From: an uncultured Acidobacteriota bacterium
GTDB taxonomy: Bacteria > Acidobacteriota > Vicinamibacteria > Vicinamibacterales > UBA2999
Reading direction: 5' to 3'
NCBI GenBank assembly: GCA_902826515.1
Contig: CADEFD010000007.1
Span: 3,373 to 67,372, forward strand
DNA: 64,000 nt
In this document: positions 16,768 through 42,788 of the stretch, piece by piece
Position numbering within the stretch: position 1 is the stretch's first letter
Layout: the number at the start of each line of letters is the position of its first letter
The notes under the pieces: generated by a model
What the model was told of the DNA's origin: nothing
Seen by the model: only the letters and a program-made list of their open reading frames with translations
Databases searched by the model: none
Made by a program: the position numbers and the translations under genes

Positions 16768-16785
16768 GCGGCTCACGAGAGCCGC
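16768..16785. terminator. Hairpin straddling convergent stop codons (possible bidirectional terminator)
   Basis: GCGGCTC-ACGA-GAGCCGC, a perfect 7-bp stem between or over the kinase stop (16766) and the argA stop (16773). There is no U-tract. Confidence 0.3.
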
Positions 16786-18053
16786 TTCACGAGCACCTTC
16801 GAGTTGCGGCCGCTCTTCTCGTAGCGTTCGCGGCGGCCCGGCGACAGGTCGTCCACCGTGCCTTCCACGAAGCCGCCCTTGGCGCTGAAGTAGTTGAAGG
16901 CCTGCGTCGAGAGCGCCAGGATGCGGTCCAGCCCCTGCTGGCGGGCGCGGTTCTCCACGAACTGGATGAGCTTGCGGCCGATGCCCTGGTTCTCGTGCGC
17001 CGAACTCACGTAGAGGCAGGCCAGCTCGCCCTGGTTGCGGTCGCGGTCCACGTGCAGCGCGACGCAGCCCACCGGATTGCGGTCGATCTCGAAGATCACG
17101 TAGTCGCCGAGCTGCTGCTCGATGCTGCTCCGCGTGCGCTTCACGAGTTCGTCGGCTTCGACGCCCTGCCGCGTGAGCGACTGGATGGCGCCGATGTCGC
17201 GCCGCTCCGCCGGCCGGATGTTCTCGTACTCGTTCGTGTGGATGAGCGTGCCGTAGCCGTGGTTCGAGAACACCTCGCCGAGCAGGCCCTCGTCGAGTGT
17301 GCCGTCGATGACGTGCACGCGCGGCACGCCGCCCACGCACGCGCGCACCGCGTGCTGCGCCTTCGACAGGTGCTCGCCTTCGAACCCGGCCGGATCCTTC
17401 TGCACGAGATCGCCGAGCTGCGCCACCATCATCTGGCGGATCGGCTGCCCGCGGTGCACGAGCCCCGGCGCCGCGGTGACGTAGATGAGTTTCACCGCGC
17501 GGAGCTGCGCCGCCACGGCCACGGCCATGCCGTCGGAATTCACCCGGTAGGTGCGGCCTTCGCCGTCGAAGCCGAGCGGCGGCACGATGGGCACGACGCC
17601 CTGGGTGAGCAGCGACTGCAGCAACCCGATGTCCACGCGTTCGACGCTGCCGGTGAACTGCTGGTCCACGCCCTTGATGACACCCACCGGGTGCGCCACG
17701 ATGCCGTTGGTGCAGGCCGCCCTGAGGTCGTTGGCCGACAGCCCCTGCAGGATCTCGTGCGTCAGGCGGTTGGAGGCCGTGACGGAGAGTCCCAGCGTGA
17801 GCGCGTCCGTTGCGCCGGTGCCATCGGTATTCGACGCCGTGACGCCGCGTTCGTCCGCCAGGCGGCGAATCTCCGCCGCCACGCCGTGCACGATCACCAC
17901 GCGGATGTTCAGCGACCACAGGACGGCGATGTCCTTGAGCAGCGTCGCGAAACGTTCGTCCGACACGATTTCGCCGTCGATCGCCAGCACGAAGGTCTTC
18001 TCCCGGAACTCCGGGATGTACTGCAGGATGCCGCGCAGGTCGGTCAGCTTCAC
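16773..18053 (-). CDS. argA: Amino-acid N-acetyltransferase (N-acetylglutamate synthase)
   Basis: 426 aa. N-terminal amino-acid-kinase fold (FREKTFVLAIDGE...IRVVIVHG...VNSDGMAVAVAAQLRAVKLIYVT) plus a C-terminal GNAT domain (ELACLYVSSAHENQGIGRKLIQFVE). GTG start. Confidence 0.9.
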   Translation of the reverse strand: MKLTDLRGILQYIPEFREKTFVLAIDGEIVSDERFATLLKDIAVLWSLNIRVVIVHGVAAEIRRLADERGVTASNTDGTGATDALTLGLSVTASNRLTHEILQGLSANDLRAACTNGIVAHPVGVIKGVDQQFTGSVERVDIGLLQSLLTQGVVPIVPPLGFDGEGRTYRVNSDGMAVAVAAQLRAVKLIYVTAAPGLVHRGQPIRQMMVAQLGDLVQKDPAGFEGEHLSKAQHAVRACVGGVPRVHVIDGTLDEGLLGEVFSNHGYGTLIHTNEYENIRPAERRDIGAIQSLTRQGVEADELVKRTRSSIEQQLGDYVIFEIDRNPVGCVALHVDRDRNQGELACLYVSSAHENQGIGRKLIQFVENRARQQGLDRILALSTQAFNYFSAKGGFVEGTVDDLSPGRRERYEKSGRNSKVLVKRLS

Positions 18054-18134
18054 GGTTGATATGGTGCTACAGCTCCGCCGCCGTCGTCTCGCGGAATTCG
18101 AGGCGGCTGGTAGAATCCCGGTCCGAGGCCCTAG

Positions 18135-19250
18135 ATGACCATGTCACTCCGCCTGCTCCTGCCCGCCGCTCTGGTCCTTGTCGCCGTCATCACGACGAGC
18201 GGCGGCGTACGTGCCGGCGCCTCGAACGGCGCCGGCTGGGACCCCGCGGCCGCCGCGCGATACCTCGACGCGCGGGCCACCTGGTGGACGACGTGGCCCA
18301 ATGCCGCCCGCGATCGCGGCACCTACTGCATGTCGTGCCACACGACGCTGCCGTATGCGCTGGCGCGGCCGGCGCTGCGCGGGCTGCTGAACGAGTCCGC
18401 TCCGTCGGCGGGCGAGCAGCAGATCGTCGGCAACCTGCTGGCACGAGCGCGGGCCTGGCGCGACGTCGAGCCCTGGTATCCCGATCAGACGCGCGGCATT
18501 CCGAAGACGAGCGAGTCGCGGGCCATCGAATCCGTGATGAACGCCCTCGTGCTCAGCTGGCGCGACGCCGTGGCCGGTACGCTCAGCGACGACGCCCGCG
18601 CGGCCTTCGACGTGATGTGGGCGCTCCAGATGAAGACCGGGCCGGAGACCGGCGCGTGGACGTGGCTCAACTTCAAGCTCGAGCCGTGGGAATCCCCGAA
18701 CTCGCCCTACTTCGGTGCGTCGATGGCGGCGCTCGCCGTGGGCTCGGCGCCCGGCGGCTACGCGGCGTCGCCCGAGATCGCGGCCCGTGTAAAGGCGATG
18801 CGCGACTACTTCCAGAAGCAGCACGGCCAGGTGTCGCTGCTCAATCAGCTCACCGGAGTGTGGGCGACGAGCCGGGTGCCCGACCTGCTGACGCCGGCGC
18901 AGCGCCAGGCCACCGTGGAGGCCGCGTTCGCGCGCCAGCAGGCCGACGGCGGCTGGAACACGCCGGCGCTCGGCGGTTACACGCGCGTGGACAACACCGC
19001 GACCGATACGCGCAGCGATGGCTACGCCACGGCGCTCGCCACGCTCGCGCTGCAGGCGGCGGAAGTGCCGGTGTCCGAGCCACGCCTTGCCAGGGGGCTC
19101 GACTGGCTGCGCCGCCATCAGGACAAGGCGTCGGGCCGATGGCCGGCGGCCTCACCGAACAAGGACCGCGATCCGGAATCGGATCCCGGCAAGTTCATGA
19201 GCGACGCGGCCACGGCCTACGCCGTGTTGTCGCTCACGTATCAGCGCTGA
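18135..19250 (+). CDS. Exported protein with a single CxxCH motif and a possible alpha/alpha-toroid (prenyltransferase/terpene-cyclase-like) repeat region
   Basis: Signal peptide [24 protein letters not shown]. The motif is [10 protein letters not shown]. Later motifs QQADGGWN and [10 protein letters not shown] resemble QW-type repeats. The assignment is tentative. Confidence 0.6.
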
Positions 19251-19257
19251 GGCGCGA

Positions 19258-19794
19258 TCAGAAGCGCCAGCGCAGCCCGGCGCGGAGCGGCGCCACCGCG
19301 AGCGTTTCGCCGCCCTCGGTCCCCACCTGCATCCGCGCGTCGGCGAAAATCGCCAGATGCGGCCCGAGCGGCGCCTGCACGCCCCCGCCGGCAAAGACCG
19401 CCCGCACCGTGTTCGTCACGCGGTCAGGAAACGTGTCGTTCACGGTGGGTGTGGATCGGCCGCGGGCGAAACCGGCGACGACGTAGGGCGTGAGGCGGTG
19501 CGGCGGGAAGAGCGACACGCGCACGCCGGCCGCGCCGAGCACCATCGCGCCGCCGCGAAAGGTGCTGCCGCCGCCGCGGCCGTCTGACGTGACGCGCGTC
19601 GACAGCACGGTGCGTTCGGCGTCGAGCGTCAGCGTCACGCGAGACCACGGCGACCAGCCGGCGCCGCCGGCCACGCTGTAGCCGCGATCCACGAGGGTAG
19701 GTCCGGCCGCCGCCTGGATGTTGAATGCCTGGGCGCGGGCCAGGGCCGGTGCACTCAGCAGGAGCGCGATCGCGAGGACGGATCTGAGGCGCAT
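19258..19794 (-). CDS. Small outer-membrane beta-barrel protein
   Basis: ATG at 19794 lies 6 nt after AAGGAG. Signal peptide MRLRSVLAIALLLSAPALARAQA. The sequence has an alternating beta-strand pattern and a C-terminal ...LRAGLRWRF (terminal Phe). The track ORF to 20103 is an over-extension. Confidence 0.7.
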   Translation of the reverse strand: MRLRSVLAIALLLSAPALARAQAFNIQAAAGPTLVDRGYSVAGGAGWSPWSRVTLTLDAERTVLSTRVTSDGRGGGSTFRGGAMVLGAAGVRVSLFPPHRLTPYVVAGFARGRSTPTVNDTFPDRVTNTVRAVFAGGGVQAPLGPHLAIFADARMQVGTEGGETLAVAPLRAGLRWRF

Positions 19795-19948
19795 GATGGA
19801 CTCCTTTGCCTCGTAGTGCGCAGGGGCCGTGCGAAGCGGCTCACCGCGTGGGTCGCCGCGCGCGAGTATAGGCGAACGCGCCGCCTCAGCCGATCGCCGC
19901 GCACCGGATCGTTCGACAACGCCGTGCCCGCATGGCACGATCGGGCGG

Positions 19949-20389
19949 GTGAGCCGCAGGCACGAGGGCGCGAATCTGGAGGAGCTCCGCCGGCTGCGCC
20001 GGGTACGCGACCGCATGGATCGCGACTTCGCGGAGCCGCTCGACGTCGACGCGCTCGCCCGCGACGCCGGCATGTCGGCCGGCCACCTCAGCCGCCAGTT
20101 CAAACGTGCCTACGGCGAGTCGCCGTACAGCTACCTGATGACGCGGCGCATCGAACGTGCGATGGCGTTGCTGCGGCTCGGGCGGATGAACGTCACCGAC
20201 GTGTGCTTCGAGGTGGGCTGTTCGTCGCTCGGCACCTTCAGCACCCGGTTCACCGAACTCGTGGGCGTGCCGCCGAGCCTCTACCGGCAGCAGGCGGCGA
20301 AGGCCACGGCCGGGCTGCCGGCGTGCGTGGCGAAGCAGATCACCCGTCCGGTCAGGAATCGAGAAGCGCGCGTCGCCGCGCGTTCCTAA
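19949..20389 (+). CDS. AraC/XylS-family transcriptional regulator (DNA-binding domain only)
   Basis: LDVDALARDAGMSAGHLSRQFKRAYGESPYSYLMTRRIERAMALLRLGRMNVTDVCFEVGCSSLGTFSTRFTELVG is the double HTH of AraC. The GTG start at 19949 is my choice and is uncertain. Confidence 0.8.
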   Translation: MSRRHEGANLEELRRLRRVRDRMDRDFAEPLDVDALARDAGMSAGHLSRQFKRAYGESPYSYLMTRRIERAMALLRLGRMNVTDVCFEVGCSSLGTFSTRFTELVGVPPSLYRQQAAKATAGLPACVAKQITRPVRNREARVAARS

Positions 20390-20399
20390 ACTGTCGCGC

Positions 20400-20810
20400 A
20401 TGGACATCATCATTCACTCGAGCTTCCTTCCGCAGAACGATCCCGAGGCCGCGCTGGCCTTCTATCGCGACACCCTCGGCTTCGAGGTCAGGAACGACGT
20501 CGGCTACCAGGGCATGCGCTGGATCACTGTGGGCCCGCCGTCGCAGCCCGGCACGAACATCGTGCTCTTCCCGCCGGAGGCCTCACCCGGCCTCACGGAC
20601 GACGAGAAGCGCACGATCGCCGAGATGATGGCGAAGGGCACGTTCGCCATGGTCGTGTTCGCCACGCCCGACCTCGCCGGCACGTTCGAACGCCTGCAGG
20701 CGCACGATGCCGATATCGTGCAGGAACCCACCGATCAGCCCTACGGCGTGCGCGACTGTGCCGTGCGCGATCCGGCGGGCAATCTGATCCGCATCCAGCA
20801 GATGCGCTGA
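20400..20810 (+). CDS. VOC-family (glyoxalase/bleomycin-resistance fold) protein
   Basis: 136 aa with AALAFYRDTLGFEV...YGVRDCAVRDPAGNLIRI, a typical VOC beta-alpha-beta-beta-beta module. Confidence 0.85.
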   Translation: MDIIIHSSFLPQNDPEAALAFYRDTLGFEVRNDVGYQGMRWITVGPPSQPGTNIVLFPPEASPGLTDDEKRTIAEMMAKGTFAMVVFATPDLAGTFERLQAHDADIVQEPTDQPYGVRDCAVRDPAGNLIRIQQMR

Positions 20811-20825
20811 CCGAGGGAGCGTTCG

Positions 20826-23218
<2,393 letters not shown>

Positions 23219-35923: not shown

Positions 35924-38362
35924 ATGACGAGAGTTCCTGCCGCGCTGGTCGCCCTGGCCCTGCCGGCCGTGGTCACCGCGCTATCGGCGGCACAGGCGCC
36001 CCGGCCGGTGACGCCGGCGCCGCGTCCGGCGGCTTCACACGCCCCGGTCGCCGCGACGTCGGCGTCGAACAACGAGACCATCCAGACCTACTGCGTAGGC
36101 TGTCACAACGACCGCTCGAAGTCGGGCGGCCTGTCGCTGGCGGCGTTCGACGTCGCGAAGGCAGACGCGCACGCCGACGTGGCCGAGAAGGTCGTGCGCA
36201 AGCTGCGCACCGGCATGATGCCGCCGCGCGGCGCGTCGAAGAAGCTCGAGGCGCCGGCGCGTGACGCGCTGGCCGCCGCACTCGAGACCACGCTCGACCG
36301 CAGCGCGGCCGTGAACCGCAACCCCGGCCGCCGGTCGTTCCAGCGTCTCAACCGCGCCGAATACGTGGCGGCCGTACGCACGCTCGTCGGCCTCGACATC
36401 GACGTCAGCCAGTACCTCCCGGCCGACACCATCAGCGCCAGCTTCGACAACATCGCCGACGTGCAGATGCCGTCGGCCACCGTGATGCAGGGGTACCTGC
36501 GCGCCGCGGCCTACGTGAGCCGTATCGCGGTGGGCGACCCCACCATCGACGCCACCTCCACGCAGTACGAAGTGCCGCGCACGCTCTCGCAGAAGGAACG
36601 GCTCGAGGGCGCGCCGTTCGGCACCCGCGGCGGCACCGTCGTGACGCACAACTTCCCGGCCGACGGGAAGTACAAGTTCCAGATGCTGCTGCACGGCGAA
36701 CCCACCGGGTATCTCTTCGGCCGCACGATGCGCGCCATCGAGATGGAAGTGGCCGTGGACGGCGAACGCGTGGCGCTCGTGAAGGTCGATCGCTGGATGT
36801 CGGAATCCGATCCCGATGGCCTCACGCTCTCGACCGCGCCCATCTACGTGCGCGCCGGCGCCCGCCAGGTGTCGGCCACCTTCATCCAGGAATTCGAGGG
36901 CGCGGAAGACGACCTCATCAAGCCCATCGACCACACGCTCGCCGACACGCAGATCGGCGTCGGGTATGGTGTGACCACACTCGCGCACCTGCGCAACCTG
37001 TCGGTCGTGGGGCCGTATGAAGCCACCGGCGTGTCGGATCATCCCGCCCGCCGCAACATCTTCACCTGCCGCCCGACGGCGCCCGGGGAAGACGTGGCCT
37101 GCGCCCGCGGCATCCTGCAGCGCCTCGCCACCCAGGCCTACCGCCGGCCGGCCACGAAGGCCGATGTCGATCAGCTGATGACGTTCTACAGCCAGGCGGC
37201 GAAGACGGACGGCTTCGAAGCCGGCATCCGCCAGTCGCTCCAGGCGCTGCTCACGAGCCTCCACTTCGTGTTCCGCGTCGAGGCGACCCCGGCCGGCGTC
37301 AAGCCCGGTGCGGCGTATCGCGTGAGCGATCTCGACCTCGCCTCGCGTCTCTCGTTCTTCCTCTGGAGCACGCTGCCCGATCGCGAGCTGCTCGACGTGG
37401 CGGCGCGCGGCGGCCTGACGCGGCCCGAGATGGCCGACCGCCAGGTGCGCCGGATGCTCGACGATCAGCGGTCGTCGGCCCTCGGCACGCGCTTCGCAGC
37501 GCAGTGGCTGCGCCTGCAGGACCTGACCAAGGTCGAACCCGACGCCCTGTCGTTCCCCTACTTCGACGAGTCGCTCGCCGAGGCGATGGGGCGCGAAACC
37601 GAGCTGCTCTTCGAACACCTCGTGAAGGAAGACCGCTCGGCGCTCGAACTGCTCACGGCCGACTACACGTTCGTGAACGAGCGGCTGGCGCGGCACTACG
37701 GCATTGCCGGCGTCAGCGGGCCGACGTTCCGCAAGGTCAGTTATCCCGACGACACGCGCCGCGGCCTGCTCGGCCACGGCAGCGTGCTCACACTCACCTC
37801 GCACGGCAACCGCACGTCGCCGGTGCTGCGCGGCAAGTGGGTGATGGAAGTGCTGCTCGGCAGCCCGCCGCCGCCGCCGCCGCCGAACGTGCCGGAACTC
37901 GAAGCCACCAAGGCCACCACCGCCGGCCGTCTGCTGTCGGTGGCCGAGCAGCTCGCGTCGCATCGCGCCAGCCCCGTGTGCAGCTCGTGCCACAACGTGA
38001 TCGACCCGATCGGGCTCTCGCTCGACAACTTCGACGTCACCGGCGCCTGGCGCATCAAGGATCGCGGCGTGCCGGTGAACGCGTCGGGGCAGCTCTACGA
38101 CGGCACCCCGCTCAACGGCGTGGGTGACCTGCGGGCGGCGCTCGTGGCGCGCTCGGACGTGTTCGTGACGCACCTCACCGAACGGCTGCTCTCGTACGCG
38201 CTCGGCCGCCGGGTCGAGTACTACGACATGCCCACGGTGCGGCAGATCGTGAAGGATGCGAAGGCCGCCGACTACCGGATGTCGGCTCTCATTCTCGGCG
38301 TCGTGCGCAGTGCGGCTTTCCGCACGGCGAGCGCCGACCAGACCGACGACACCCGGCAGTAG
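35924..38362 (+). CDS. DUF1592-family protein (with DUF1587/1595/1588/1585-type regions) carrying an N-terminal CxxCH motif
   Basis: 812 aa with signal peptide MTRVPAALVALALPAVVTALSAAQA. It carries TYCVGCHNDRSKSGGLSL...KLRTGMMPP, LFWSTLPDRELLD, DYTFVNERLARHYGI, a PPPPPPPNVP stretch, ...HR....C..CH..IDPIG..LDNFD..G.WR and LSYALGR..EYYD. Confidence 0.85.
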   Translation: MTRVPAALVALALPAVVTALSAAQAPRPVTPAPRPAASHAPVAATSASNNETIQTYCVGCHNDRSKSGGLSLAAFDVAKADAHADVAEKVVRKLRTGMMPPRGASKKLEAPARDALAAALETTLDRSAAVNRNPGRRSFQRLNRAEYVAAVRTLVGLDIDVSQYLPADTISASFDNIADVQMPSATVMQGYLRAAAYVSRIAVGDPTIDATSTQYEVPRTLSQKERLEGAPFGTRGGTVVTHNFPADGKYKFQMLLHGEPTGYLFGRTMRAIEMEVAVDGERVALVKVDRWMSESDPDGLTLSTAPIYVRAGARQVSATFIQEFEGAEDDLIKPIDHTLADTQIGVGYGVTTLAHLRNLSVVGPYEATGVSDHPARRNIFTCRPTAPGEDVACARGILQRLATQAYRRPATKADVDQLMTFYSQAAKTDGFEAGIRQSLQALLTSLHFVFRVEATPAGVKPGAAYRVSDLDLASRLSFFLWSTLPDRELLDVAARGGLTRPEMADRQVRRMLDDQRSSALGTRFAAQWLRLQDLTKVEPDALSFPYFDESLAEAMGRETELLFEHLVKEDRSALELLTADYTFVNERLARHYGIAGVSGPTFRKVSYPDDTRRGLLGHGSVLTLTSHGNRTSPVLRGKWVMEVLLGSPPPPPPPNVPELEATKATTAGRLLSVAEQLASHRASPVCSSCHNVIDPIGLSLDNFDVTGAWRIKDRGVPVNASGQLYDGTPLNGVGDLRAALVARSDVFVTHLTERLLSYALGRRVEYYDMPTVRQIVKDAKAADYRMSALILGVVRSAAFRTASADQTDDTRQ

Positions 38363-38379
38363 TCACACGGAGCAGACAG

Positions 38380-39789
38380 ATGGTCCTGACCAAGAAGCAC
38401 GTTTCACGCCGCTCGATGCTGCGTGGCATGGGCGCCACCGTGGCGCTGCCGTTCCTCGAGTCGATGGTGCCGGCCGGTGCGGCGTATGCGAAGACCAGCG
38501 CCGCCAAGGCGGCCGGCAAGGTGCGCCTCGTCTGCATCGAGCAGGTGCACGGCGCCGCCGGCATCAGCGAGTTCGGCCAGGCGCAGCACATGTGGAACCC
38601 GGCCGCGACCGGCCGCCGGTTCGACATCAGCAAGGGCAGCCTGAGCCCGCTCGAGGCGTTCCGCGACCAGCTCACGATCGTGAGCCAGACGGATGCGCGG
38701 ATGGCCGAGGCCATGTCGGCCCCGGAAGTGGGCGGCGACCACTTCCGCTCGAGCGCCGTGATGTACACGCACGCTCATCCCAAGCTCACCGAAGGATCGG
38801 ACGTGCGCGTCGGCACGTCGATGGACCAGCTCTACGTGCAGCGCCACGGCAAGGACACGCCGATCCCGTCGATGCAGCTCAGCATCGAGCCCGTCGATCA
38901 GTCGGGCGGCTGCGCCTACGGCTACGCCTGCGTCTACACCGACACCATCAGCTGGGCGACGCCGGAAACGCCGCTGCCGATGATCCGCGACCCGCGGATG
39001 GTGTTCGAGCAGCTCTTCGGCTCCGGCGGCACGCCCGAGCAGCGCGCGGCCCGGCGCGCCACCGACAAGAGCATCCTCGACATGCTCAGCACGCAGATGG
39101 CCGACCTGCGCCGGTCGCTCGGACCGTCTGACCGCCAGCGCCTCGACCAGTACGGCACCAACATCCGTGAAATCGAGTCGCGCATCGCCCGCATCGAGGC
39201 GCGCAACACGAGCGGCGACGCGCGCGAGCTGCCGGGCGCCCCGGCCGGCGTGCCCGACTCGTTCGAAGAACACGTGAAGCTGATGTTCGACCTGCAGGTG
39301 CTGGCCTTCTCGTCCGACACCACGCGTGTCTTCTCGTTCAAGATGGGCCGCGACGGCTCGGGCCGCGTCTACCCGGGCAGCGGCATCTCCCGCGGCTTCC
39401 ACGACGCCTCGCACCACGGCGCCTCGGAAGACCGGATCAAGGAATTCGCCGAGATCAACAAGTACCACGTGTCGATGCTGCCGTATTTCCTCGAGAAGCT
39501 GCAGGGCACGATGGACGGCGAGGCGAACCTGCTCGACAAGACCCTCATCCTCTACGGTTCGCCGATGGCCGTCGGCAACACGCACAACCATCGCAACTGC
39601 CCGCTCATCGTGCTCGGCAAGGGCGGCGGCGCCATCGAGCCCGGCCGTCACATCCGCGCGCAGGAAGGCACACCGATGGCGAACGTGATGCTCACGCTGC
39701 TGCGCAACCTCGGCCTCGACGACCTGCAGAGTTTCGGCGACAGCACGGGCGAATTCTCGTTCACCGCGCCCGACAGCACGGTGGCCTGA
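38380..39789 (+). CDS. DUF1552-family protein with a Tat-type signal
   Basis: SRRSMLRGMGATVALPFLESM at the N-terminus. Motifs ...DTTRVFSFKMGRDGS..., ...HHG..., ...ILYGSPMAVGNTHNHRNCPLIVLGKGGG are typical of DUF1552. The gene starts 17 nt after the DUF1592 gene. Confidence 0.85.
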   Translation: MVLTKKHVSRRSMLRGMGATVALPFLESMVPAGAAYAKTSAAKAAGKVRLVCIEQVHGAAGISEFGQAQHMWNPAATGRRFDISKGSLSPLEAFRDQLTIVSQTDARMAEAMSAPEVGGDHFRSSAVMYTHAHPKLTEGSDVRVGTSMDQLYVQRHGKDTPIPSMQLSIEPVDQSGGCAYGYACVYTDTISWATPETPLPMIRDPRMVFEQLFGSGGTPEQRAARRATDKSILDMLSTQMADLRRSLGPSDRQRLDQYGTNIREIESRIARIEARNTSGDARELPGAPAGVPDSFEEHVKLMFDLQVLAFSSDTTRVFSFKMGRDGSGRVYPGSGISRGFHDASHHGASEDRIKEFAEINKYHVSMLPYFLEKLQGTMDGEANLLDKTLILYGSPMAVGNTHNHRNCPLIVLGKGGGAIEPGRHIRAQEGTPMANVMLTLLRNLGLDDLQSFGDSTGEFSFTAPDSTVA

Positions 39790-39808
39790 CCTCATGGAGA
39801 TCCGCCAG

Positions 39809-41578
39809 ATGCCACGCCCGTTCCGTTCCTCGTTGTGCGTGATCGCGGTCGCGGCGCTCGTCGCCGCCGGCCCGGTCGCGCGTCCGGCCGCCGCGGCCGC
39901 CGATGCCCCCGTGGCGGATGCCGCCATGAAGAGCCGCAGCACCGACGTGCGCACGCTGCTCAAAAGCGGCGCCGACGTCAACGCGGCGCAGGCCGACGGC
40001 ATGACGGCGCTGCACTGGGCGGCGCTCAACGGCGACCTCGCCACGATCGACCTGCTGCTGCTGGCCGGCGCCACGCGTGAATCGCTGACCCGGGTGGGCG
40101 CCTACACGCCGCTCCACCTGGCCAGCCAGCGCGGGCACGCCGGAGCCGTCGCGAAGCTGCTCGACGCCGGCGCGAAAGTGCAGCCGTTCACCGCCACCGG
40201 CGTGCAGGCGCTGCACCTGGCGGCGCAGGCGGGCGATGTCGCGGCGGTGAAGGCGCTGCTCGACCACGGCGCCGACATCGACGCGCAGGACAAGACACAC
40301 GGCCGCACGGCGCTCGTCTTCGCGGTGTCGAAGGATCGGCGCGAGGTGCTCTCGCTGCTGGCGTCGCGTGGCGCGAAACTGACTCTGACCACCACCGTCA
40401 TCGACTACCGCGAACGCGCGGCCGCCGATCGCACGGCCCGCGAGACCCGCGACCGCATCGTCTCGGCCACGACCGGCCGCAAGGTGGATTCGAGCTTCGA
40501 TCCGGATCCGCCGCCGCCCGGCACCGTGAACGTGGGCGGCGTGCAGAACGGGCGTGGCGCGCCGCCGGTGGCCGCGGCCGGGGGCGCGGCGCCGCGCCGG
40601 CCGCCGTCGGACATCGAACAGATCGGCCGTCAGGGCGGCTTCACCGCCCTGCACTACGCCGCGCGCGACGGCTACGCGGCCGCGGCCGTGGCGCTCGTGG
40701 ATGCCGGCCTCGACGTGAACGTGCCCTCCGCCGGCGATCACTCGACGCCGATGACGGTGGCCCTCATCAACGGGCAGTACGACCTGGCGCTGACGCTGCT
40801 GAAGCGTGGCGCCGATCCGAACCTGGCCAACGACGACGGCGTGACGCCGCTCTTCGCGACGCTCAACAACGAGTGGGCGCTGCGCACCTGGTACCCGCAG
40901 CCCACCGCCGGCGGCCAGCAGCGCGCCTCGTATCTCGACGTGCTCGAGACGCTGCTCAAGGCCGGCGCCGATCCCAACCGCCGCACTCTCTCGCACATCT
41001 GGTACGCCGCCTACAACACCGGCCGCATGGGCGTCGACTTCGCCGGCGCCACGCCGTTCTGGCGCGCCGCCTACGCCCTCGACGTCGAGGCGATGCGCCT
41101 GCTCACGCGCTACGGCGCCGATCCCGACATCCCGAGCATGACCTACGGCGCCACGCGCCGGCCCACCGATGCCTCGGGCCTCGAGAGCGTGCCTCAGGGC
41201 GGGCCGCACGTGCCGGCCTTCCACGCCGCGAGCGGCGTGGGCTACGGCACCTCGCGCGTCGCGCAGCAGCACCGGCACGTGCCGGAGGGCTGGCTGCCGG
41301 CGGCCAAGTACTTCGTCGAGGAACTCGGCGTGAATGTGAACATCCGCGACGCCGACGGCTTCACGGCGCTCCATCACGCCGCCGCGCGCGGCGACAACGA
41401 CGCCGTGAAGTACCTCGTGAGCAAGGGCGCCGATGTCCGGGCCGTCAACCGCGTCGGCCAGACCACGGCCGACATGGCCAACAGCCCGGAACAGCGCACG
41501 CAGCCGTTTCCCGACACGCTGGCACTGCTCGAGTCGCTCGGGGCGACCAACAACCACAACTGCCGCGCCTGCAAGTAG
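39809..41578 (+). CDS. Exported ankyrin-repeat protein
   Basis: ATG at 39809 lies 7 nt after GGAGAT; the track start 39794 is also possible. Signal peptide MPRPFRSSLCVIAVAALVAAGPVARPAAAAA. There are multiple ANK repeats (DGMTALHWAALNGDLATIDLLLLAGA; TPLHLASQRGHAGAVAKLLDAGA; ALHLAAQAGDVAAVKALLDHGADIDA; GFTALHYAARDGYAAAAVALVDAGLDVN; GFTALHHAAARGDNDAVKYLVSKGADV). Confidence 0.85.
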   Translation: MPRPFRSSLCVIAVAALVAAGPVARPAAAAADAPVADAAMKSRSTDVRTLLKSGADVNAAQADGMTALHWAALNGDLATIDLLLLAGATRESLTRVGAYTPLHLASQRGHAGAVAKLLDAGAKVQPFTATGVQALHLAAQAGDVAAVKALLDHGADIDAQDKTHGRTALVFAVSKDRREVLSLLASRGAKLTLTTTVIDYRERAAADRTARETRDRIVSATTGRKVDSSFDPDPPPPGTVNVGGVQNGRGAPPVAAAGGAAPRRPPSDIEQIGRQGGFTALHYAARDGYAAAAVALVDAGLDVNVPSAGDHSTPMTVALINGQYDLALTLLKRGADPNLANDDGVTPLFATLNNEWALRTWYPQPTAGGQQRASYLDVLETLLKAGADPNRRTLSHIWYAAYNTGRMGVDFAGATPFWRAAYALDVEAMRLLTRYGADPDIPSMTYGATRRPTDASGLESVPQGGPHVPAFHAASGVGYGTSRVAQQHRHVPEGWLPAAKYFVEELGVNVNIRDADGFTALHHAAARGDNDAVKYLVSKGADVRAVNRVGQTTADMANSPEQRTQPFPDTLALLESLGATNNHNCRACK

Positions 41579-41604
41579 GCGCGTTTCCCGGAGTGAGATC
41601 GCGT

Positions 41605-42243
41605 ATGTCGTCGATGGTGTGGATGCGTTCGCTGACCGTGGCCATGCTGGCCGTCGTGGGGATGGCGGCTCCGGCGGCCGCGCAGCGTGTCGTGGGCACG
41701 GGCGCGTCGGGCCCGGCGCCGGAACCGGTCGTGCTCGACAACACCGGGCTCTTCCAGGAGAAGTTCGTGAGCGTGGGTGACGACCTCTTCATCGGCGGGC
41801 AGCCCACGGAGAAGGCGCTGCGCGAGCTGAAGGCGAAGGGCGTCACCACGGTCGTGAATCTGCGGATGCCGCAGGAGATGGCGCAGATCGGCTTCGACGA
41901 AGCGGCGCTGCTCAAGGAGCTCGGCATCACCTACGTGCACATCCCGATGCGCGGCTCCGCCGAAAATCCCTACGGCCCGGCGCAGCTCGATACCTTTGCC
42001 AGCACGCTCGCCGGCGCGCGGGGCAAGGTACTGCTGCACTGCACGGTGGCATGGCGCGCCAGCCATCTCTGGGGCGCATATCTCATTCGCGACCGCAAGA
42101 TGCCTGTGGAAACCGTGCTCGCCCAGACGCGGAAGATCAACCTGCGCGACGACGCCCCCTTCGGCACGCAGCAGCCGATCGAAGGCTTCCTGGCGAAGCC
42201 GGTGCCGGGGCTCCTTCCGCCCAAGCCCAGACCGCAGCCCTGA
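41605..42243 (+). CDS. Exported DUF442 / dual-specificity-phosphatase-like protein (tentative)
   Basis: Signal peptide MSSMVWMRSLTVAMLAVVGMAAPAAAQ. The segments FIGGQPTEKALRELKAKGVTTVVNLR and KVLLHCTVAWRASHLW (a Cys-x4-Arg P-loop-like motif) resemble the DUF442 phosphatase-like family, from memory. Confidence 0.6.
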   Translation: MSSMVWMRSLTVAMLAVVGMAAPAAAQRVVGTGASGPAPEPVVLDNTGLFQEKFVSVGDDLFIGGQPTEKALRELKAKGVTTVVNLRMPQEMAQIGFDEAALLKELGITYVHIPMRGSAENPYGPAQLDTFASTLAGARGKVLLHCTVAWRASHLWGAYLIRDRKMPVETVLAQTRKINLRDDAPFGTQQPIEGFLAKPVPGLLPPKPRPQP

Positions 42244-42273: not shown

Positions 42274-42302
42274 AAACGGCCGCCGGAATCCGGCGGCCGT
42301 TT
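42274..42302. terminator. Bidirectional intrinsic terminator between convergent genes
   Basis: AAACGGCCGCCGG-AAT-CCGGCGGCCGTTT, a perfect 13-bp stem. On the minus strand it is followed by TTTTCATTT, and on the plus strand the stem ends in TTT. Confidence 0.7.
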
Positions 42303-42332: not shown

Positions 42333-42788
42333 TTACTTGCGCTTCTTGTAGGTCACGTGCGTCACGCCCGTGATCTTGCCGTCCTTGTCGAGGCGGATGT
42401 ACTCGTTGTTGATCGTCATGTTGTCTTCCGACAGCGTGTTGATCACGACCTGGTAGACCACGCCGTTCCGCTTGTTGAGGATGCGGATGCTCTTGGCGCT
42501 GCCGTTGATGAGCTCGACCGCGGTTTCGGAACCGGGCTGGCCCGACACGGGGCGGAAGACGCCGTCGAACATGGTCACGTAGCCCCAGGCGGCTTCGGGC
42601 TTGCTGGGGTTGCTCACGGTGAGCTTGCTGCCGCCCTTCTCGAAGGCCTCGTAGGTCATCACGTTGTTCGGGTCGGTGGTGTTGTCCCACACCCCGAAGC
42701 GCAGCTCGGCCTGAGCGAAGCTCGGCGTGGCGGAGAAGAGCGCGATGGTGGCAACGGCGGAGCAGACGAGCAGATTCAGGTGTCGCAT
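42333..42788 (-). CDS. Small exported protein of atypical composition (hypothetical, possibly lipocalin-like beta-barrel)
   Basis: ATG at 42788 (AGAGGA upstream). Signal peptide MRHLNLLVCSAVATIALFSATPSFAQA. The mature part is rich in Asn, Lys and Thr and ends ...THVTYKKRK. The local G+C is visibly lower than the surroundings. Confidence 0.65.
   Translation of the reverse strand: MRHLNLLVCSAVATIALFSATPSFAQAELRFGVWDNTTDPNNVMTYEAFEKGGSKLTVSNPSKPEAAWGYVTMFDGVFRPVSGQPGSETAVELINGSAKSIRILNKRNGVVYQVVINTLSEDNMTINNEYIRLDKDGKITGVTHVTYKKRK

Follow-up and report, generated by a model that had tools for sequence, protein, structure and literature searches.

A Predicted Three-Gene Exported Module of a DUF1592-Type Cytochrome, DUF1552 and an Ankyrin-Repeat Protein in an Uncultured Acidobacteriota Bacterium, with a DUF442-Like Gene as a Probable Recent Neighbour

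Introduction

Do four closely spaced genes for exported proteins encode one system, or do only some of them belong together? This question is raised by a gene string at positions 35,924–42,243 of a 64,000-nucleotide stretch of DNA (the window) from an uncultured Acidobacteriota bacterium of the order Vicinamibacterales; the window is contig C7:3373–67372 (CADEFD010000007.1) of a 5.85-Mb, 418-contig assembly (GCA_902826515.1), labelled here as genome G000. The genes, designated g1–g4, encode a DUF1592-type protein, a DUF1552 protein, an ankyrin-repeat protein and a DUF442-like protein. An earlier note, made from the sequence alone, had read them as an operon for one periplasmic complex in which the ankyrin repeats serve as the scaffold and the DUF442-like protein as the catalytic partner. 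The explanation that we consider best, and hold to be fairly probable, is a module of three genes, g1–g3, with g4 as a recent neighbour.

The gene pair formed by DUF1592-type and DUF1552 genes is known, and its function is unexplained (He et al. 2017, PMC5615132). The trio extends this pair, and the locus is a new instance of it.

The G+C content of the window is 70%, which accounts for the many spurious open reading frames (ORFs) that overlap real genes; third-position GC singles out four co-directional genes on the forward strand (Table 1). Their coordinates were reproduced, with gaps of 17 nt between g1 and g2, 4 nt between g2 and g3, and 26 nt between g3 and g4. If g3 begins at its second ATG, the gap between g2 and g3 becomes 19 nt, and this start has GGAG 8–13 nt upstream, a better one than that of the start at 39,794. 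Judged by inspection, all four N-termini resemble export signals, in agreement with the earlier note, and profile searches in Pfam returned the DUF1592-type, DUF1552, ankyrin and DUF442 families that it had named. Since the identical gene order returns in dozens of genomes, the locus lies far beyond a chance arrangement.

Conservation of the Cytochrome–DUF1552–Ankyrin Trio

In its own genome, tblastn found ten DUF1552 genes, each behind a DUF1592-type gene, and a paralogue of g3 (45–55% identity) follows all of the assessable copies but one. Outside the window, three trios stand in tandem on contig C15 (1–16,296), and a divergent trio with an ankyrin protein of 33% identity lies on contig C52 (18,841–24,146). 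Each of twelve congeners (12/12) has 3–17 matches to the ankyrin family and 4–18 matches to DUF1552.

A scan of GTDB with one genome per species, for which an alignment of six ankyrin paralogues served as the query, returned more than 570 relatives; counts out of 78 given below refer to the best 78 loci of that scan. DUF1552 directly precedes the ankyrin gene in 76 of these loci, with DUF1592 before it where the contig permits, and the trios lie on one strand, in fixed order, often in tandem and in three or more phyla. The loci are labelled as Vicinamibacterales/Acidobacteriota, Longimicrobiales, Gemmatimonadales, and Woeseiaceae together with other Gammaproteobacteria; a few come from metagenome-assembled genomes (MAGs) labelled as Acidimicrobiia or Bifidobacteriaceae, which are possibly mis-binned. 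There are two exceptions: at L039:5563–9788 the ankyrin gene stands directly behind DUF1592, across a gap of 168 nt and with no DUF1552 between them, and at L093:7663–9453 the 7.6 kb before an ankyrin-CxxC gene contain no DUF1592–DUF1552 pair.

The DUF1552 family is present in 31 of 151 evenly drawn Acidobacteriota genomes, and its genes were split into two groups by the start of the Pfam profile alignment. In the 30 other Acidobacteriota genomes, 62 of the 66 g2-like genes (clade A) are followed on their own strand, within 1.5 kb, by a member of the ankyrin family, compared with only 12 of 68 in the other group (downstream ankyrin at E <= 1e-40). Copies of this second group, as sampled in another family of the order, differ in what comes after DUF1552: some have a shorter all-ankyrin protein without the tail described below, and others an esterase, an ABC ATPase or no co-directional gene. 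A nucleoside-hydrolase-like gene separates DUF1552 from DUF1592 in G016.

The distance matrices of the three proteins, compared over 65 trios, correlate with r = 0.75–0.80 against a permutation maximum of 0.15, which indicates that the trio has been duplicated and inherited as a unit. DUF1552 evolves most slowly (mean p-distance 0.34) and the ankyrin protein fastest (0.46).

By these comparisons, g1–g3 are one copy of a self-contained module of three genes for predicted exported proteins, whose duplication is ancient. Across Acidobacteriota, Gemmatimonadota and some Gammaproteobacteria, the module has been passed on and multiplied as a whole. That the ankyrin gene belongs specifically with the DUF1592/DUF1552 pair is borne out by the best loci (76/78), by the clade-A genes (62/66) and by about 9 of 10 pairs in the genome under study.

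The arrangement of the copies varies. The first DUF1592–DUF1552 pair on C15 (1133–4965) lacks an ankyrin gene and runs straight into the following DUF1592 gene, and a tandem array holding one ankyrin-less pair also occurs in G148:C7 and in G112:C88. Elsewhere, trios are grouped within stretches of about 100 kb, among unrelated housekeeping-type genes, as in G148:C7:130001–230000 (L137–L141, six trios), G007:C6:1.72–1.82 Mb, G009:C3:216–304 kb and G005:C27:920–1012 kb.

Predicted Properties of the Three Proteins

All five domains of the family are found in g1 above the Pfam gathering scores: PSD3/DUF1587 (3.2e-16), PSD5/DUF1595 (2.9e-19), PSD4/DUF1592 (1.8e-45), PSCyt3/DUF1588 (5.1e-34) and PSD2/DUF1585 (6.7e-26); an N-terminal PSCyt1 match is weak (23.9 bits against a cut-off of 22). 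The protein is laid out as an N-terminal cytochrome c domain, a β-sandwich resembling a carbohydrate-binding module (CBM; approximately aa 205–370) and a large helical domain. The haem-attachment-like motif TYCVGCH, which the earlier note had reported, was located at aa 55–61, and a second CxxCH motif that it had missed lies in PSCyt3/DUF1588 (Table 1). Residues C57, C60, H61, M99, P101, C686, C689 and H690 are invariant among 72 homologues, and so are C382 and C393. The invariance of two CxxCH motifs and of a Met ligand over these homologues argues for functional haems, and g1 is predicted to be a Sec-exported two-haem c-type cytochrome of the DUF1592/PSCyt3-PSD family.

The AlphaFold (AF2) model of g1 is confident (pLDDT 86.8, pTM 0.87). 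Foldseek matches of its β-sandwich are the jelly rolls of BcsB, CBM6, CBM35 and C1q, at E ~4e-3 or weaker, and no structural neighbour of the whole chain was found in the PDB. Sequence searches with g1 and g2 gave nothing meaningful against the PDB and no model matches in NCBIfam.

The g2 protein matches HXXSHH/DUF1552 (Pfam, 1.9e-83) and is predicted to be exported by the twin-arginine translocation (Tat) system; the Pfam TAT_signal match is weak (E 0.032), and the two arginines themselves are invariant. Candidate metal ligands, likewise invariant, are E54, H57, D293, H298, D325, H341, H345, H402 and H404. E54, H57, D105, N403 and C407 are specific to the DUF1552 clade that has a CxxC-tailed ankyrin protein. 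Cys178 and Cys184, also invariant, were considered as specific partners of the CxxC tail and rejected, as they are conserved in all DUF1552 clades with or without an ankyrin partner. In a divergent DUF1592/DUF1552 clade (36–40% identity to g2), represented by the C52 locus and by loci L110–L114 of G017, DUF1552 has Leu in place of Cys407 and lacks E54/H57.

The AF2 model of g2 (pLDDT 76, pTM 0.84) was built with the DUF1552 genes of the fetched loci, as the best 120 database homologues were all at least 80% identical and thus too close; these homologues did bear out the origin of the DNA in Vicinamibacterales. The top 50 Foldseek matches in the PDB all belong to the alkaline-phosphatase superfamily, with 3lxq, LtaS/LtaP, YejM, sulfatases and phosphonate-monoester hydrolases as the structural neighbours. 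The scores are weak, and an alkaline-phosphatase-type α/β fold is treated as probable for DUF1552.

The third protein, g3, matches Ank_2 (Pfam, 1.3e-51) and is organized as a signal peptide, 4–5 canonical repeats, a low-complexity linker and a second ankyrin block with aromatic-rich non-canonical inserts. Its most sharply defined feature is the tail: N586, H588, C590 and C593 are invariant in six g3 paralogues, and in 88 of 88 ankyrin homologues examined a CxxC motif lies at the C-terminus or no more than about ten residues from it. The family tail reads LG(A/S)xNN(H/N/D)xCxxC, mostly as NN[H/N/D]xCxxC, and is normally placed at the extreme C-terminus. A search with the C-terminal 200 aa gave 1307 matches at 1e-30, a number unusable as a count of the family, since giant multi-ankyrin proteins with summed repeat scores dominate and only about one quarter of the best 150 matches are true members. 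We take g3 to be a Sec-exported ankyrin-repeat protein, as predicted from its sequence, and the constant third gene of the trio.

Proposed Mechanism

The two haems and the CBM-like β-sandwich of g1 suggest substrate binding combined with electron transfer, and a division of labour within the trio can be proposed. DUF1552 would be the catalytic subunit and depend on a metal, bound at a histidine-rich site (HxxSHH, HNH and D293/H298) of an alkaline-phosphatase-type scaffold. The cytochrome would bind a polymeric or bulky substrate through its β-sandwich and would link the DUF1552 metal centre to a periplasmic electron-transfer chain, as the cytochrome domains of Cbp2D do for lytic polysaccharide monooxygenases (LPMOs). 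The ankyrin protein would act as a cognate scaffold or assembly factor, for which AnkB with KatB is a precedent, and its terminal CxxC might dock onto a partner protein at a metal, a thiol or a haem; the clade-specific Cys407 beside H402/H404 of DUF1552 is the best candidate. On this view, the approximately ten paralogous trios of a genome would differ in substrate specificity. As a whole, a cytochrome-wired periplasmic metalloenzyme with an ankyrin scaffold, drawn from sequence, models and analogy, seems to us possible rather than probable.

Several observations weigh against this proposal. The fold matches of g2 are weak (best E 3e-4, TM 0.36–0.43), and two of its loops that are rich in invariant residues, aa 108–143 and 174–191, are modelled at pLDDT <50. 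E54/H57, at the position of the first metal ligand in alkaline-phosphatase-type sites, are not kept in the other DUF1552 clade, and the covariation of Cys407 with the tail comprises two clades only and is confounded by phylogeny. Comparison of the profiles of DUF1552 and DUF1501, a family whose genes also occur in this genome, gave a probability of 12.9% over 73 columns, and the aligned part is only the C-terminal 'strand-...-HNH' against 'SEFGR...RDH'. Finally, members of the alkaline-phosphatase superfamily are hydrolases or transferases that need no cytochrome, and the redox role would follow from gene linkage alone.

In a purely hydrolytic alternative, the trio would scavenge nutrients: DUF1552 would be a phospho- or sulfo-esterase, g1 a structural or substrate-binding protein, and the ankyrin protein a chaperone or cap acting as a 'cysteine switch', its cysteines blocking the catalytic metal until needed. 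The alkaline-phosphatase-superfamily matches among the structural neighbours of DUF1552 agree with this alternative, as do the CBM-like β-sandwich of g1 and a multi-copy diversification like that of sulfatases and polysaccharide utilization loci. So do neighbouring genes: some trios lie near TonB-receptor/SusD, DUF5916/CBM9 or amidohydrolase genes, and in the window a TonB-receptor locus directly precedes the trio. Against it, the CxxCH motifs and the Met ligand are invariant in the 72 g1 homologues, which speaks for functional haems, and the neighbours are heterogeneous, the largest flanking cluster being found in only 9 of the 78 loci. We regard the hydrolytic alternative as unlikely.

Position and Origin of the DUF442-Like Gene

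The fourth gene encodes, as far as its sequence allows one to judge, an exported DUF442-like protein with the fold of protein tyrosine phosphatases (PTP). In Pfam it matches BLH_phosphatase (DUF442) with 30.3 bits against a cut-off of 26.1 and PTP-NADK with 33.3 against one of 27; its closest solved relative is PDB 3gxg, a 'putative phosphatase (DUF442)' (E 1.9e-7). It falls far short of the TIGR01244/Blh sulfurtransferase models in NCBIfam, scoring 40.9 where 85.85 is required and 47 where 625 is. The shortened Cys-x4-Arg P-loop is shared with DUF442/PTP-fold proteins (PDB 3gxg/3gxh and 2f46; TIGR01244); unlike DUF442/Blh proteins, g4 has a signal peptide and a Pro-rich tail and carries no fused dioxygenase.

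Orthologues of g4 with 72–92% identity are found in nine congeners. Apart from the genome under study, only the two sister species, G010 and G012, have the gene next to g3, and in both the spacer is again 26 nt. G008, G005 and G002 possess the orthologous trio (g2 86–89% identical) without g4 behind it, and in six congeners the g4 orthologue lies elsewhere. In the four examined closely (G009, G001, G005 and G002), 700–900 nt separate it from a divergently transcribed gene before it, and a convergent RraA-like gene succeeds it; this spacer and this convergent neighbour point to g4 as a stand-alone unit there. In G009 it is flanked by orthologues of the window genes at 16.8–18.1 kb and 20.8–23.2 kb, which places g4 in the conserved backbone of the region. 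Nucleotide homology between the window and these loci runs from about 20 nt inside g4 to its stop and resumes in the RraA-like gene.

A comparison of window positions 16,779–23,200 with G009:C1:174–181 kb (L019) shows that approximately 20 kb separate those orthologues from g4 in the window. Since g4 of G009 lies between the same orthologues, these 20 kb, comprising a TonB-receptor/cupin/NHL locus and the trio, are inserted or rearranged relative to G009.

A homologue of g4 occurs at none of the 78 best trio loci, and none of the other approximately nine trios of the genome under study has a g4 paralogue beside it. After the 90 ankyrin genes of those loci, there is no co-directional gene within 400 nt in 41 cases, the next trio in 16, the contig end in 5 and another co-directional gene in 28. 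These 28 genes fall into diverse Pfam families (TPR 3, DUF5916 3, hydrogenase small subunit 2, creatininase 2, and others), and none belongs to the DUF442 or DSP family. When 500 flanking ORFs of the 78 loci were clustered, the recurring clusters, DUF5916/CBM9, creatininase, TonB receptor/SusD, MacB and amidohydrolase, were each present in at most 9 loci. A Pfam tally of the 36 genes between the six trios of the 100-kb island in G148 was likewise heterogeneous. No recurrent fourth gene or functional context was thus enriched among the flanking clusters, the 28 downstream genes or the 36 island genes.

By comparative genomics, g4 is therefore best described as a backbone gene rather than a component of a conserved system, and the trio came to stand directly before it by a rearrangement in the ancestor that the three species share. 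It is probably transcribed by read-through from the trio, because the spacer is 26 nt long and no hairpin precedes position 42,274; the loss of its own upstream region here likewise makes expression by read-through probable. A survey of the genes behind DUF1592/DUF1552 pairs, which had been suggested as a check, thus upheld one half of the original proposal, with the ankyrin gene conserved in other genomes, and removed the other, with the DUF442-like gene restricted to two sister species besides this one. What had been put forward as a four-gene version of the system is a lineage-specific juxtaposition in three species. Spacing alone, at 26 nt, made a recently juxtaposed backbone gene resemble a system component.

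The reading of all four proteins as one periplasmic complex or pathway, with the DUF442-like protein as a catalytic phosphatase or sulfurtransferase, has to be judged against these data. The short same-strand spacer uninterrupted by a hairpin, the export signal of g4, its weak similarity to the sulfurtransferase domain TIGR01244/Blh and the preservation of the arrangement in two sister species speak for this reading, as does a trio near the g4 orthologue of G005 (see below). Against it stand the homology breakpoint at the 5' end of g4, the orthologous trios that lack g4, its orthologues elsewhere in six congeners, four of them monocistronic in appearance, and its absence from the best loci, from the other trios of the same genome and from the co-directional downstream genes. 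DUF1552 itself, whose model resembles the alkaline-phosphatase superfamily, is also the more likely catalytic partner. The four-protein reading is largely refuted, and we regard it as very unlikely.

One locus tempers this conclusion. In G005 (L020, C10:16924–25200), a different, paralogous trio in convergent orientation is only 2.3 kb away from the orthologue of g4; between the two stands the RraA-like gene, co-directional with that trio and directly after its ankyrin gene. A weak link of the g4 neighbourhood with trios may therefore exist. L020 is a second, independent trio at the g4/RraA spot, and an insertion hot spot is possible.

Comparison with Known Systems

A pair of PSCyt3/PSD and DUF1552 genes was reportedly noted in 2004 by Studholme and colleagues in Planctomycetota and Verrucomicrobiota. 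With this pair of the Planctomycetota–Verrucomicrobiota–Chlamydiota (PVC) group, g1 and g2 share the five Pfam domains, CxxCH and an adjacent DUF1552 gene with a Tat leader; in the trio clade of Acidobacteriota, Gemmatimonadota and Gammaproteobacteria, by contrast, a third gene is fixed, for an exported ankyrin protein with a CxxC tail. In the papers searched, neither a mention of an ankyrin partner of DUF1592/DUF1552 nor a description of the trio was found.

A periplasmic ankyrin protein beside a haem protein has a precedent in katB-ankB of Pseudomonas aeruginosa and other bacteria, where the periplasmic ankyrin-like AnkB is encoded with the haem catalase KatB and acts as an accessory factor. 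The likeness lies in an exported ankyrin-repeat protein in an operon with an exported haem protein. AnkB differs from g3 in being small, in having no CxxC tail and in its catalase partner, and there is no third component like DUF1552; the sequence relationship between AnkB and g3 is limited to the ankyrin repeats.

The module of DUF1501 and PSCyt1/PSCyt2/PSD1 in PVC bacteria is also a close parallel (Kamneva et al. 2012, PMC3542564). It combines a Tat-exported enzyme-like protein with a multidomain protein bearing a cytochrome c motif, is highly amplified and is functionally unexplained, as is the trio; its Pfam families are others, and no ankyrin partner is described for it.

Cbp2D of Cellvibrio japonicus joins c-type cytochrome domains to a CBM and a DUF1587 domain, and one of its cytochrome domains (CjX183) reduces LPMOs in vitro (Branch et al. 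2021, PMC8981238). Cbp2D is the only experimentally studied relative that we found. It resembles g1 as a secreted multidomain c-type cytochrome with a CBM and DUF1587, and it passes electrons to an extracytoplasmic metalloenzyme. It differs in that the partner is a copper LPMO and not DUF1552, in its architecture and in the lack of an ankyrin protein.

Thiosulfate oxidation by Sox proteins employs the cytochrome SoxAX, the hydrolase SoxB and the carrier SoxYZ, in which a C-terminal Cys of SoxY is part of a GGCGG tail. A cytochrome, a metallohydrolase and a reactive Cys at the extreme C-terminus recur in the trio as a cytochrome, a metalloprotein of hydrolase fold and invariant cysteines at the end of the ankyrin protein. 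By analogy, the ankyrin cysteines could hold an intermediate that the cytochrome attaches oxidatively and DUF1552 hydrolyses off. In addition to the three matching parts, several trios in one island lie near single sulfur-related genes (sulfate permease, rhodanese); sulfur-metabolism neighbours are not consistent across the flanks of the trios. The tail is CxxC, not GGCGG, no homology to Sox proteins was detected, and approximately ten paralogous trios per genome are unlike the single-copy Sox system, so that such a carrier seems highly improbable. An extended form of the analogy is remoter still: the CxxC tail would be a swinging arm or redox relay of a new carrier-based periplasmic oxidation system, the two-haem cytochrome would load or oxidise an intermediate on the cysteines, DUF1552 would release it, and in this lineage the sulfurtransferase-like DUF442 protein would be a newly recruited feeder.

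The least credible alternative, that g3 is a secreted eukaryote-directed effector, as bacterial ankyrin proteins are usually read, and is linked to the pair by accident, draws on its best NCBIfam matches, the Legionella Dot/Icm ankyrin effectors (at most 116 bits, far below cut-offs of at least 450), and on some loci from sponge-associated MAGs, and it fails on the constant place of the gene beside those for two periplasmic proteins, in lineages that live free in soil and sea, on about ten ankyrin copies per genome, on the covariation of ankyrin distances with those of the partners, and on a Sec signal without any secretion-system context.

Under the preferred explanation of a three-gene module, many 'eukaryote-like' ankyrin genes counted in Acidobacteriota and Gemmatimonadota from soil, the sea and sponges probably encode subunits of a periplasmic module and not host effectors. 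The enrichment of ankyrin genes reported for sponge symbionts may in part reflect this trio instead of effectors. The MAG names of loci L034, L036, L052, L058 and L060 (SB066x_bin, RHO1/RHO3_bin) suggest sponge-associated communities.

The DUF1592-type cytochrome and DUF1552 form one of the large, long-known gene-pair families of environmental bacteria to which no function has been given. That the pair has a constant third partner, and one whose CxxC end is sharply defined, offers concrete experimental handles, and the trio is one of the more tractable ways into this family.

Sequence Features and the 3' Side of the Gene String

Table 1. Genes, motifs and other features of the gene string; positions are those of the window.
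Feature	Position	Strand	Description
g1	35924–38362	+	812 aa
Haem-attachment motif 1, CVGCH	36092–36106	+	aa 57–61 (TYCVGCH, aa 55–61); invariant in homologues
GMMPP	36212–36226	+	aa 97–101; likely Met ligand M99; M99 and P101 invariant
Haem-attachment motif 2, CSSCH	37979–37993	+	aa 686–690, within PSCyt3/DUF1588; invariant in homologues
g2	38380–39789	+	469 aa
Tat motif SRRSML of g2	38404–38421	+	R10 and R11 invariant in 85 homologues
HDASHH of g2	39400–39417	+	HxxSHH, aa 341–346; invariant
HNHRNC of g2	39583–39600	+	H402-N-H404; H402 and H404 invariant
g3	39794–41578	+	594 aa; alternative start at the second ATG, 39809
Tail NNHNCRACK of g3	41549–41575	+	One extra Lys at the end; family signature N-x-H-x-C-x-x-C
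g4	41605–42243	+	212 aa; real start is the ATG at 41605
P-loop HCTVAWRAS of g4	42037–42063	+	Cys-x4-Arg; aligns with HCLANYRAS of PDB 3gxg
Hairpin AAACGGCCGCCGG-AAT-CCGGCGGCCGTTT	42274–42302	.	13-bp perfect GC-rich stem, 3-nt loop
Small exported ORF	42333–42788	-	No Pfam match; between g4 and the RraA-like gene

The hairpin that had been described at the end of the string was recovered exactly in stem and position, between g4 and the small convergent ORF on the reverse strand. Its calculated energy is −29.6 kcal/mol for a 55-nt segment. The T-tract is short (TTT on the forward strand), which explains why the hairpin is not listed by a consensus terminator scan; it is likely to serve as a terminator for both convergent genes, with weak U-tracts.

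The small ORF at 42,333–42,788 is absent at the matching place in G009, G005 and G001, and its orthologue in G009 lies approximately 6 kb away. This displacement is a further indication, the second, that the surroundings of g4 have been rearranged.

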